Assembly: GCA_017608235.1 (NCBI GenBank) | Contig: JAFCGI010000003.1 | Span: 44,146 to 108,145 of the forward strand | DNA from: Candidatus Pacearchaeota archaeon | GTDB taxonomy: Archaea > Nanobdellota > Nanobdellia > UBA10117 > JAFCGI01 | Reading direction: 5' to 3' | Length of the DNA stretch: 64,000 nt | Shown: one piece after another, positions 11,196 through 39,904 of the stretch | Layout: every line of letters starts with the position of its first letter | How positions within the stretch are numbered: position 1 is the stretch's first letter | Program-made: the position numbers and the translations under genes | Notes under the pieces: generated by a model | Databases searched by the model: none | What the model was told of the DNA's origin: nothing | What the model saw: only the letters and a program-made list of their open reading frames with translations

Positions 11196-11789
11196 ATGGT
11201 TAAGAAAAAAACTAAATTCAAGAAAAAAGTTTCAGAAACTAAAGAAACTAAAATTAAAGAAGAAAAACTTAAAGGTTTGCTAATAAGTAACAGAACTATT
11301 GTATCAGAAAACATAGAATTAGCTCAAGCTCTCTATGATAGAAGTAGCTTTGGAGAATTTCATGGAAGAGAAAAAAAACTAGAACTATCATTAGTTGAAT
11401 CTCTTTTCCTTTTAGAAAAGAAAAAACTAGATCTATATTTTAAAGGAAAAAAGTTAAACTTCAAAACTTTTTTAGCTAAAGCCACAAGACTAGAAAAGAA
11501 TTTCTGGAATAGATTTTCTGTATATAGAGATTTTAGAAATAGAGGATACATCCTTAAGACAGCACTAAAGTTCGGTGCAGACTTTCGTGTATATCCTAGA
11601 GGAGTTAAGCCTGGGCAGCAGCATGCTAAATGGATTTTATTCTGTGCCTCAGAGGGAGAAAAACTCACTTGGAGGCAATTCTCTGCTATGAATCGTGTAG
11701 CTCACTCTACAAGAAAGAAACTTTTAGTAGGAATCGTAGACGATGAAGGTGATGTTACTTATTATCTTATAGGATGGATCAAACCATAA
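11196..11789 (+). CDS. endA: tRNA-splicing endonuclease, catalytic-type subunit (short, alpha-type)
   Basis: C-terminal catalytic domain KFGADFRVYPRG…QQHAKWILFC matches the EndA Y…H…K catalytic region. Length 197 aa with an N-terminal Lys-rich extension. Confidence 0.65.
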   Translation: MVKKKTKFKKKVSETKETKIKEEKLKGLLISNRTIVSENIELAQALYDRSSFGEFHGREKKLELSLVESLFLLEKKKLDLYFKGKKLNFKTFLAKATRLEKNFWNRFSVYRDFRNRGYILKTALKFGADFRVYPRGVKPGQQHAKWILFCASEGEKLTWRQFSAMNRVAHSTRKKLLVGIVDDEGDVTYYLIGWIKP

Positions 11790-19432: not shown

Positions 19433-19441
19433 AATAGAAGT

Positions 19442-19575
19442 GGGACCAGTGGGAATTTCTCAACCACGGAATTTTCCGTCAATGCTTTTGTTCTTACAGT
19501 TACAAAAGGGTTGTTTTGAACCCACGACACCTAGATCTTCAGTCTAGTGCTCTCCCAGTCTGAGCTATGGTCCCC
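19442..19575 (-). tRNA. tRNA-Phe (GAA) with an about 60-nt intron at T-loop position 59/60
   Basis: Minus-strand cloverleaf. Acceptor GGGACCA pairs with TGGTCCC; disc A. D-arm GCTC-AGACTGGGA-GAGC. Anticodon stem CTAGA/TCTAG with loop CUGAAGA. T-stem GTGGG; TTCAAA [60-nt insert] T; CCCAC. The insert begins ACAACCC and ends GGTTGAGAAAT. Confidence 0.7.
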
Positions 19576-21083: not shown

Positions 21084-21439
21084 GGAAACTAGCTTAGCAG
21101 GCCTACGCTTCATCCCAAGCTATAGGATTTAATAGCGCCATACCAGACTAGGCGATCCCAGCATAATAAAGTGGAGCATGCTTTAGGATGGACATAAACA
21201 ACATTTACTGTGATCCTAATAATCAGCTCCACCCCGTATCTCCAAAGCACCCCAAAACCAAGTTACGGTTGCTCCATTCCTGGCCTGGCCGGATTAGCTT
21301 GAAAGAGAGGCCCTTGAAGGCGAGGCTTCGACGCCAACTAAAAGGGCAGCAAGCATTCTTTACGCCGCTCCCAAAGCTTCATCTTCCCCTAAAGCGCATT
21401 GAGGATTACAGGCCCGCGCTAATGGCCCAGACTAGCCCC
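21084..21439 (-). ncRNA. Signal recognition particle RNA (archaeal 7S/SRP RNA); ends approximate
   Basis: GC-rich island on the minus strand. 5' GGGGCUAGUCUGGGCC…GGGCCUGUAAUCC is an Alu-domain-like UGUAAU. Helix-8 region CAGGCCAGGAAUGGAGCAACCGUAAC…GGGGUGC matches the archaeal CAGGCCCGGAAGGGAGCAACGGUAG…GGGUGCC. A 3' GCUAGUUUCC can pair with the 5' GGGGCUAG. The overlapping 90-aa ORF (21188..21460) is rejected. Confidence 0.6.
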
Positions 21440-21485
21440 ATAAAAAACACTTTTTATTGATTTAAAAACCTTATCCTTATATAAT

Positions 21486-37839: not shown

Positions 37840-38055
37840 TTATTTGGTAGATATTTTTACCCATTTGTCTTGCTTCTTTTGATATTTGGTTTTAACAGCT
37901 TTCCAAGCAATCCTATGTGAGATTTCTTCCTGTCTAGGATTATCCTTATATTGTTTGAAAGCAGAATTAAAAGCTTTCATATATATTGTTTGAGCACTTT
38001 TAGGAAGGTTTTCTTTAACTTTGTCTGGTAGATCTTCTGTTTTGTTATAGGGCAT
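37840..38055 (-). CDS. chaB: ChaB-family protein
   Basis: Whole-length resemblance to ChaB: MPY…DLPDKVKENLPKSAQTIYMKAFNSAFKQYKD…EEISHRIAWKAVK. Length 71 aa. Confidence 0.7.
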   Translation of the reverse strand: MPYNKTEDLPDKVKENLPKSAQTIYMKAFNSAFKQYKDNPRQEEISHRIAWKAVKTKYQKKQDKWVKISTK

Positions 38056-38214: not shown

Positions 38215-38333
38215 TGGGCCTACTGGGAATTTCTCAGCTATAGGGGTTTCTACTAATGGTTTCCCGAAAAACTGTATCGAACCCAGGTCTTTTGGTCCGC
38301 AACCAAACATTCTATCCACTAGACTATAGGCCC
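38215..38333 (-). tRNA. tRNA-Arg (GCG) with an about 47-nt intron at T-loop 59/60
   Basis: Acceptor GGGCCTA pairs with TAGGCCC; disc A. Anticodon stem TTTGG/CCAAA with loop UUGCGGA. T-stem CTGGG; TTCGAT [insert ACAG…GCTGAGAAAT] T; CCCAG. The D-stem is weak (GTCT/GAAT has one mismatch and two G-U). Confidence 0.6.
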
Positions 38334-38452
38334 ATAGAAAAGTGTTTTAGAGAGATTAAAAAACTTATGTTTAGCTATTTTTGTATACTATAATGTTGAA
38401 AGACATATGCTGTATTAAGATTATAGTAAAAATATTACAATAAAAAATATAA

Positions 38453-38607
38453 TAGCCCCGACCGGACATTCTCAACCGCGGATTTCTTCCGCCAATGCTT
38501 CTTTCTAAGAAGGGTTGTTTCGAACCAGTGTCCTAAGGTCCAGAACCTCAGATGCTTGACTTATAGATCTAATAATTTTTTTATTAAATTCACTACACTA
38601 CGGGGCT
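38453..38607 (-). tRNA. tRNA-Gln (CUG) with a 52-nt T-loop 59/60 intron and an additional about 30-nt AT-rich insertion in the D-loop
   Basis: Acceptor AGCCCCG pairs with CGGGGCT; disc A. D-stem GTGT/GCAT. Anticodon stem TGAGG/CCTTA with loop UUCUGGA. T-stem ACTGG; TTCGAA [ACAACCC…GGTTGAGAATG] T; CCGGT. The D-region insert forms the hairpin TTAATAA-AAAAA-TTATTAG. Confidence 0.5.
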
Positions 38608-38754
38608 ATGTCTAAAATAATAATAAGCTAGTTTTTAAAGTATTCGAATGTTATGGACTTTTAAATTATGATAGTGCTTCTATACCTTTTTTAGTAACTC
38701 TCTAGCAGTAGTATAAATCATAAAATTTATAAGGTGAAGCACAAAGGCATAATT

Positions 38755-39561
38755 ATGGCATTACCATTTTATATCATGGCAGAGAATGATGATAGAGAAC
38801 TTCTTAAGATAGTTGAAGATTCATTTAGTTTTTTAGAATCACTAAGTGGAATAAGTATTCCTAGGAAAGTATTTGGTTCTTATTTTTGTAAGGATGATTA
38901 TGGAAGCATAGATTGGTATATCAAAGAATCTACTGATTATAATCCATATGCTAAAAAGAAGCAAGTTAATGCTGCTAATTTATTTAATTTATTTGGTAAA
39001 GAACCCTGGCAGGAACAAAATAGACATTATGAATTAATGGTTTTAAATAATGATTTATTTGTTAAAAATACTAGGTTTATATTTGGCCTTACTTGTAAAA
39101 AAATAGATTTTAATGGGAAATTAAAAGATGATTTACTTTGTGAGCAAATATATGGTAGAGCTGAGAATAAAGTTATTAGAGAACGGAAACCATATATATC
39201 TGGGATTGTTCAATCTGCTTATAGAATTAAGAATTGGTATGGAGAAGAATGGAAACCTGCTTTTAAGACTATGATATTACACGAGCTTGGGCATTTCTAT
39301 GGATTGGCTGCAGAATCTAATCCTAATATGCTAAAACCTGGTGATAGACGTACAAAAAATATGTTAGATGTTTGGCATTGTAACAATAGAGATTGTATTA
39401 TGGAGCAAGTTAATATCGCAGGGAGGTTAGATTTGTTAGAAAAAACAAAATATCTAAATAAACATAATTCTAAGCTATTCTGCGAGTATGATTTAGAAGC
39501 ATTAAAAAAAAACATCTGCAAGTTGTATTCTTCAAGAAATGGAATTAAAATCTTAAATTAG
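38755..39561 (+). CDS. Archaemetzincin-like zinc metallopeptidase (M54-like)
   Basis: HELGHFYGL (HExxHxxG) followed by HCNNRDCIM, which is the archaemetzincin CX4CXM element. The track ORF starts at GTG 38734. Confidence 0.55.
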   Translation: MALPFYIMAENDDRELLKIVEDSFSFLESLSGISIPRKVFGSYFCKDDYGSIDWYIKESTDYNPYAKKKQVNAANLFNLFGKEPWQEQNRHYELMVLNNDLFVKNTRFIFGLTCKKIDFNGKLKDDLLCEQIYGRAENKVIRERKPYISGIVQSAYRIKNWYGEEWKPAFKTMILHELGHFYGLAAESNPNMLKPGDRRTKNMLDVWHCNNRDCIMEQVNIAGRLDLLEKTKYLNKHNSKLFCEYDLEALKKNICKLYSSRNGIKILN

Positions 39562-39619: not shown

Positions 39620-39904
39620 TTAGAATGAATAATAATTTTCAAAAAGTATTTTAGATTTGGAGTTCTTATGCTTTGTTTTTTCTTTTTCTCGCTCCTGTAA
39701 ATGAACATGGTATTTTAAGTGACAAGTATAACAGATTGCTTTTAGATTATCTAAAGTATTTCTACCTCCTTTTGAAATTGGAACTATGTGATGTGCATAT
39801 AATCTTATGCGCGTCTTTCCACAATCTTCGCAAGTATAGTTTGCTAGCTCTTTTACGCGCTTACTTAAATCTTTCCAATAAGGCCATTTATTGCTATAAT
39901 CCAT
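39620..39904 (-). CDS. HNH endonuclease (small, stand-alone)
   Basis: CEDCGKTRIRLYAHHIVPISKGGRNTLDNLKAICYTCHLKYH is an intact HNH/zinc motif. Length 94 aa. Confidence 0.65.
   Translation of the reverse strand: MDYSNKWPYWKDLSKRVKELANYTCEDCGKTRIRLYAHHIVPISKGGRNTLDNLKAICYTCHLKYHVHLQEREKEKTKHKNSKSKILFENYYSF

Follow-up and report, generated by a model that had tools for sequence, protein, structure and literature searches.

The gene for tRNA-Gln(CUG) at positions 38453..38607 of the window (the window being the whole stretch of 64,000 nucleotides analysed here) is very probably functional and would give rise to a 155-nt precursor with two protein-spliced archaeal introns, one in the D-loop and one in the T-loop. 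We infer from the sequence that this precursor is transcribed, cleaved and ligated. The gene lies on the minus strand and thus reads from 38607 to 38453; the initial annotation had placed it correctly, and the strand is added here. CCA is not encoded, and the identity of the tRNA follows from ARAGORN applied to the spliced form. Exon 1 (gene nt 1-17, 38591..38607, minus strand as all parts of the gene) contains the 5' strand of the acceptor stem, U8, A9, the 5' half of the D-stem and the D-loop up to G18. It is followed by the D-loop intron (30 nt, gene nt 18-47, 38561..38590), which interrupts the G18/G19 bond and has a relaxed HBh' motif. Exon 2 (nt 48-89, 38519..38560) comprises the remaining D-arm, the anticodon arm with CUG, the variable region, the 5' strand of the T-stem and the T-loop up to A59, and the T-loop intron (52 nt, gene nt 90-141, 38467..38518) at 59/60 has a near-canonical hBHBh' motif. 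Exon 3 (nt 142-155, 38453..38466) provides U60, the 3' strands of the T-stem and of the acceptor stem, and the discriminator A.

The acceptor stem has 7 bp. In the anticodon arm, which is intact, a 5-bp stem carries the loop UUCUGGA, from which CUG is read as the anticodon. A distance of 39 nt (4 + 30 + 5) separates the two halves of the D-stem, GUGU (nt 10-13) and GCAU (nt 53-56); the initial annotation had rightly recognized this enlargement but counted 38 nt. The hairpin that it had described within the D-loop is real, but its length was misjudged, as it has 9 bp, including one G.U pair, and a 5-nt loop of A residues. The sequence TTTAAAAA (38632..38639, minus strand), 25-32 nt upstream of the mature 5' end, resembles a TATA box and, from general knowledge of archaeal promoters, is the putative promoter of the gene. 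A run of six T (38442..38447, minus strand) located 6-11 nt downstream of the gene is a putative terminator. The flanking ORFs are at 37840-38055 (minus) and 38734-39561 (plus); the interval between them has no ORF of at least 60 aa and contains tRNA-Gln(CUG) and, 118 nt downstream of it, a gene for tRNA-Arg(GCG). The fold of the whole precursor has an energy of -48.6 kcal/mol (z = -3.55). ARAGORN did not report the locus, whether its intron mode was on or off, and the only tRNA that it found in the window was tRNA-Trp. Likewise, the locus had no match to the Rfam tRNA model at the gathering score in the window, and none of the 38 matches of this model in the whole genome (E ≤ 1) fell on the gene. 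Two further features of the window may be mentioned: a small ORF for a 94-aa HNH endonuclease (39620-39904, minus) about 1 kb from the pair of Gln and Arg tRNA genes, and an archaeal SRP RNA (21170-21442, minus; 127.5 bits, 51% G+C), which marks the window as archaeal DNA.

The borders of both introns were taken from homology, because an enumerator combining BHB motifs with ARAGORN also accepted wrong solutions; the assignment of the locus to "tRNA-Leu(aag)" was one of these and was rejected. The compact 73-nt tRNA-Gln(CUG) of one relative served as the query against the 39 species genomes of the order and found matches in 29 of them (E ≤ 0.01), which according to our reading of the table are contiguous and full-length in 22 genomes. 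The best match was extracted from 21 of these 22 (G032 was left out). All 21 compact relatives are 73 nt long, and ARAGORN assigned the anticodon CUG to 16 and UUG to 5 of them. When the window gene was compared with 11 compact tRNA-Gln(CUG) genes of the order in a 14-sequence alignment, it differed by two extra blocks only, namely by 30 nt in the D-loop, after the G aligned with G18 and before the next G, and by 52 nt in the T-loop, between A59 and U60. Removal of both inserts (nt 18-47 and 90-141) leaves 73 nt, which ARAGORN recognizes over positions 1-73 as tRNA-Gln(ctg) with all four stems paired, and the D-loop restored in silico resembles the AGYGGYCAA of the relatives. The D-loop insertion is exactly 30 nt long (nt 18-47, 38590..38561), as had been noted initially, and is indeed AT-rich, with 7% G+C compared to 56% in the exons.

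Exactly at these homology-defined borders of the D-loop insert lies a relaxed BHB motif. Its central helix (H) is formed by exon nt 12-15, GUAG (38593..38596, minus), and intron nt 42-45, CUAU (38563..38566, minus), with all four of four positions paired (G-C, A-U, U-A, G.U). The 5' strand is followed by a 3-nt bulge, UG/A, which includes the 5' splice site, and by the inner helix (h'), in which nt 19-27 pair with nt 33-41 around a 5-nt loop (38567..38589, minus; 9 bp, all of them A-U or G.U). The 3' splice site, AA/G, is two bases past the central helix. An outer helix (h) is missing at this intron (h = 0), as U11 and U49 form a mismatch that is followed by the G10-C50 pair only, and the motif is therefore of the relaxed HBh' form rather than a strict hBHBh'. 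This is the outcome of the BHB prediction that the initial annotation had recommended for the insertion. Motif and D-arm are mutually exclusive, since nt 12-13 are also part of the D-stem. When the intron was shuffled with the borders fixed by homology, H 4/4 together with h' of at least 3 bp was obtained in 460 of 200,000 cases, and the observed combination of H 4/4 and h' of 9 bp in none. Similarly, H 4/4 with h' of at least 5 bp was reached by 2 of 9,180 placements within the 155-nt gene, one of them being the observed D-loop intron. The inner helix has a local folding energy of -5.5 kcal/mol at 37°C and of -0.9 kcal/mol at 55°C, and it is absent at 70°C; the G+C content of the 16S rRNA (52.2%), judged by general experience, suggests a non-hyperthermophile. 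A paralogue of the D-loop intron was not found in its own genome, where only short AT-rich matches were obtained (E ≥ 0.05), and the intron thus appears to stand outside the dispersed family of 59/60-type introns of this genome. A C/D-box guide RNA within the 30-nt intron was considered as well and rejected on account of its length and of the box motifs, which by eye seem to be absent.

The T-loop intron, unlike the D-loop intron, has an outer helix (h = 5), which is the 5-bp T-stem. Its central helix has 3 pairs and a G.A mismatch, its inner helix 5 bp, and the bulges are AA/A and UG/U; this score (H 3/4, h' 5, h 5) was reached by 205 of 200,000 shuffles. The Gln 59/60 intron represents a sequence family common to several tRNA genes of the genome, and it matches the tRNA-Phe gene with 71% identity over 87 nt (E 5e-5). 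T-loop inserts at 59/60 are present in six tRNA genes, i.e. those for Ala(UGC), Gln(CUG), Arg(GCG), Ser(GCU), Phe(GAA) and Pro(UGG), and several of the six introns are similar in sequence. Besides the gene for Gln, these genes are located at 38215-38333 and 19441-19574 of the window (both minus) and, elsewhere in the same genome (G000), at C39:107313-107438, C1:65139-65307 and C1:33135-33239. Sequence like that of the 59/60 introns was also seen near 38/39 in tRNA-Glu(CUC) (C39:61650-61803) and in anticodon-loop introns elsewhere. The similarities suggest that one intron family may have been dispersed over different tRNA sites. With borders drawn by eye, the gene for tRNA-Ser(GCU) (C1:65139-65307, minus) has a second insert near 29/30, and an initiator-like tRNA gene (G000:C19:129931-130069, minus) apparently has two inserts in the anticodon arm.

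D-loop introns of the same design can be found in other lineages. The tRNA-Gln(CUG) of genome G004, which belongs to another family of the same order, has a 31-nt intron at 18/19, and a metagenome scan for the 18/19 design yielded four loci (L123-L126). Two of these, L124 and L125, which are identical over their shared part, are tRNA-Gln(CUG) genes whose sole intron is the 30-nt one at 18/19; L123 and L126 are chance matches outside any tRNA and were discarded. The intron ends with CUAUAA in the window gene, in G004 and in L124/L125, and the genes of G004 and L124/L125, spliced in silico, give tRNA-Gln(ctg). The three-sequence alignment has 12 aligned pairs, and every one of its 36 cells holds a standard pair; no change is seen in the four pairs of the central helix, and four of the eight aligned pairs of the inner helix are changed on both sides, i.e., in a compensatory manner. 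The ninth inner pair, misaligned by one gap column, is by eye A-U, C-G and G-C in the three sequences. If the partners were slid by 1-3 columns as a control, pairing dropped to 33-47%, and 4 of 500 shuffles reached the observed values. This covariation comes from three sequences only, two of which, G004 and L124, have closely similar helices, agreeing at 8/9 positions of the 5' strand.

A pattern scan for any D-loop insert of at least 9 nt in this type of Gln gene detected such inserts in 10 of 401 genomes sampled from the class, its own genome included. For all ten there is one placement that gives the consensus D-arm; it lacks an outer helix and has 3-4 pairs in the central helix, and nine of the ten inserts terminate in AA on the 3' side. 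The sites differ, being 15/16 in two genomes, 18/19 in two and 21/22 in six. Besides its D-loop intron, the tRNA-Gln(CUG) of G004 (L113; G004:C1, ~594,920-595,790, minus) has an additional 843-nt intron at 37/38 with an ORF, a 267-aa stretch of which shows a LAGLIDADG_3 match (E 5.3e-7, above the cut-off) and an N-terminal helix-turn-helix; to judge from these matches, it looks like a homing-endonuclease-like gene within a tRNA intron. The tRNA-Gln(CUG) of genome G019, a further relative, is also enlarged in the D-arm, but by a different insert of ~54 nt that lies on its 3' side. The window, L124 and G019 have in common that tRNA-Gln(CUG) is adjacent to the gene for tRNA-Arg(GCG), with orientations that differ.

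The assembly comprises 1.20 Mb in 56 contigs (30.8% G+C) and is 93% complete; the other 38 of the 39 species genomes of the order have sizes of 0.3-1.0 Mb. A second tRNA-Gln(CUG) gene, for which the initial annotation had proposed to search the genome, was found in this 93%-complete assembly neither by BLAST with the spliced sequence nor by a structural scan. Besides the locus itself, the sole BLAST match was tRNA-Gln(UUG) (C39:39999-40116), whose D and T arms are contiguous and which has one intron of ~45 nt in the anticodon region. CAG accounts for 1,448 of the 6,226 Gln codons (23%) in open frames of at least 300 codons. The structural scan, based on the T-arm motif, the acceptor stem and U8, gave 55 candidates, 12 of which were dropped as AT-rich or overlapping chance matches. 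Among the 43 plausible tRNA genes, 23 are interrupted, i.e., longer than a compact tRNA, and D-loop introns occur in at least four tRNA genes of the genome. The genes for Val(GAC) (G000, C19:154542-154646, minus), one Leu (C39:66250-66413, plus) and Ala(GGC) (C39:105192-105326, minus) have D-loop inserts of 29-31 nt that follow the HBh' design of Gln(CUG), with H 4/4, h' of 3-6 and h of 0-1, and end with AA. In the gene for Glu(CUC) (C39:61650-61803, plus), the D-loop probably contains an insert too, ~32 nt long by comparison with Glu(UUC), for which no placement with H 4/4 and h' of at least 3 was obtained. ARAGORN mis-calls or misses all these genes (Val(GAC), Leu, Ala(GGC) and Glu(CUC)).

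The initial annotation had left the choice between a second intron and a degenerate gene, and the results favor the former: the excision restores a canonical D-loop, the borders coincide with the relaxed motif, compensatory changes are found in two other lineages, and genes for splicing enzymes are present. If the gene were a pseudogene that had received AT-rich DNA in its D-loop and no longer gave a usable tRNA, CAG would have to be read by tRNA-Gln(UUG) alone. A gene for the latter does exist, the composition of the insert (7% G+C) is intergenic-like, and standard tRNA finders reject the gene; yet all four stems are intact once both inserts are removed in silico, none of the 200,000 shuffles matched the splice motif at the borders of the insert, the insert has been kept in two other lineages with compensatory changes, and CAG makes up 23% of the Gln codons in long open frames of an assembly whose sole tRNA-Gln(CUG) gene this is. 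We thus consider degeneration very improbable, bearing in mind that a second tRNA-Gln(CUG) gene could have escaped the assembly, given its 93% completeness.

It is also conceivable, with a probability that we regard as smaller still, that the insert is retained and the mature tRNA has an enlarged D-loop with an extra hairpin, in line with the missing BHB outer helix at the D-loop site. G18 and G19 dock on the T-loop, and a retained insert would separate them from each other. Furthermore, what has been conserved (the 4-bp helix to the exon, the 3-nt bulge and the terminal AA) characterizes a splice motif rather than a tRNA arm, and the compact relatives do without such an arm. The slightest chance is that of a fortuitous AT-rich palindrome, a mobile-element scar or an assembly artefact without defined processing, for although hairpins form readily in AT-rich DNA and the insert has weak, AT-rich short matches elsewhere, the shuffle test speaks against it, and the independent assemblies of G004, L124 and L125 hold an insert of like length and structure at the same bond.

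For the functional gene with two introns, the following processing can be proposed. The 4-bp central helix of the precursor would arise from pairing between intron nt 42-45 and exon nt 12-15, the latter being half of the D-stem together with A14 and G15. The 5' cut would be made in the 3-nt bulge between this helix and the 9-bp A/U inner hairpin; as the outer helix is absent at the D-loop site, the 3' cut must fall in unpaired RNA, two bases past the central helix. The T-loop intron at 59/60 would present a nearly complete BHB motif with the T-stem as the outer helix. A single alpha-type EndA would cut all four sites, RtcB would join the exons, and the CCA-adding enzyme would complete a 73-nt tRNA with a D-loop like that of its intronless relatives. 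The missing outer helix, an EndA without a specificity loop, the weak A/U inner helix and a covariation drawn from three sequences count against this proposal.

The window itself encodes the sole splicing endonuclease gene found (11196..11789, plus), a single alpha-type EndA of 197 aa with the domains PF02778 and PF01974. Its closest solved relatives are the alpha subunit of N. equitans (E 2.3e-32) and the alpha4 enzyme of M. jannaschii (E 1.4e-30), and an EndA paralogue was not found in the assembly at E ≤ 10. The catalytic EndA domain is present in 35 of the 39 genomes of the order and is single-copy in 32 of these 35. Through the whole catalytic domain, the window EndA equals the M. jannaschii enzyme in length. 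Relative to the S. tokodaii alpha subunit, it lacks 9 residues at a site that we take to be the Crenarchaea-specific loop. In the alignment with the N. equitans enzyme, it is 6 residues shorter exactly at the loop of the latter, which consists of residues 90-98 and includes K93, K94, K96 and R97 (Hirata et al. 2012, PMC3488258). In five relatives, EndA is likewise short at the loop and has a Lys-rich N-terminal tail whose length varies; the window EndA has a Lys-rich N-terminal extension of 23 residues that does not align to the M. jannaschii enzyme. RtcB is encoded within one frame of 975 aa (G000:C56:18796-21552, minus). Its Pfam match is split into positions 1-72 and 49-426, ~1.4 kb apart, as would be expected for an intein-like insertion.

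Broad specificity of the endonuclease has been tied to the inserted loops L1-L3, and where the enzyme had no specificity loop, cleavage of an HBh' D-loop substrate was inefficient and occurred mainly at the bulge (Kaneta et al. 2018, PMC5829648). That a single plain alpha-type EndA splices relaxed introns without an outer helix, in D-loops and elsewhere, across the order is a tentative idea, which we would sooner doubt than accept. This enzyme has none of the Crenarchaea-specific, ARMAN-specific and N. equitans-type basic loops to which current work ascribes a wide range of substrates. If it were true, either the minimal alpha4 enzyme would be laxer than thought or a helper factor would exist; such laxity is perhaps aided by the Lys-rich N-terminal tail or by a two-residue KK insert at the loop site. 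Alternatively, a partner of EndA could be unassembled, as the assembly is 93% complete, or unrecognised. The 18/19 intron kept in three lineages, together with a single insert-less alpha-type EndA, offers a pair of substrate and enzyme for tests of relaxed-motif recognition. A practical consequence concerns annotation: ARAGORN and the Rfam tRNA model miss tRNA-Gln(CUG) and several more genes of this genome, and as tRNA finders miss interrupted genes, automated annotation would wrongly report tRNAs as missing in such small archaeal genomes.

The structure of a tRNA gene with two introns or with a D-loop intron is in itself already documented for A. pernix, M. kandleri, ARMAN-2 and Asgard archaea. 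The 18/19 site was not found named in the passages of the literature compared here. Non-canonical and multiple tRNA introns are described for Thermoproteales, N. equitans, M. kandleri, Korarchaeum and ARMAN-1/2 (PMC4033280), and the gene studied here likewise has two introns, neither of them at the canonical position. However, its D-loop intron has no detectable paralogue in the genome, and its orthologues came to light solely in tRNA-Gln(CUG) of other lineages. The D-arm intervening sequences of Asgard archaea, which tRNAscan-SE overlooks (bioRxiv 10.64898/2026.10.13.758758), are similar to the present insert in being short, located in the D-arm, missed by annotators, defined against compact relatives and often endowed with relaxed motifs; they belong to another archaeal group, and the text of that preprint does not mention DPANN.

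The D-loop intron of the Aeropyrum pernix pre-tRNA-Thr2(UGU) was cut in vitro by EndA alone, albeit at a lower rate than a canonical intron (Hirata et al. 2011, PMC3241643). There, as predicted here, a protein-spliced D-loop intron interrupts an essential tRNA. The A. pernix intron is nevertheless described as a full BHB motif, and the (alpha-beta)2 enzyme that cuts it has the Crenarchaea-specific loop, whereas the motif of the Gln intron is relaxed and the loop is not seen in the alignment of the window EndA. The two-intron pre-tRNA-Glu(UUC) of Methanopyrus kandleri has an HBh' D-loop intron at 20b/21 that is cut in vitro (Kaneta et al. 2018, PMC5829648), and it shares with tRNA-Gln(CUG) the location in the D-loop, the central helix, the single bulge, the inner helix, the missing outer helix and the presence of a second intron. 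The positions are different, with introns at 20b/21 and 37/38 in M. kandleri but at G18/G19 and 59/60 here, and so is the host, here a small AT-rich archaeon whose one EndA gene is of the alpha type, while the M. kandleri comparison involves an alpha-beta enzyme.
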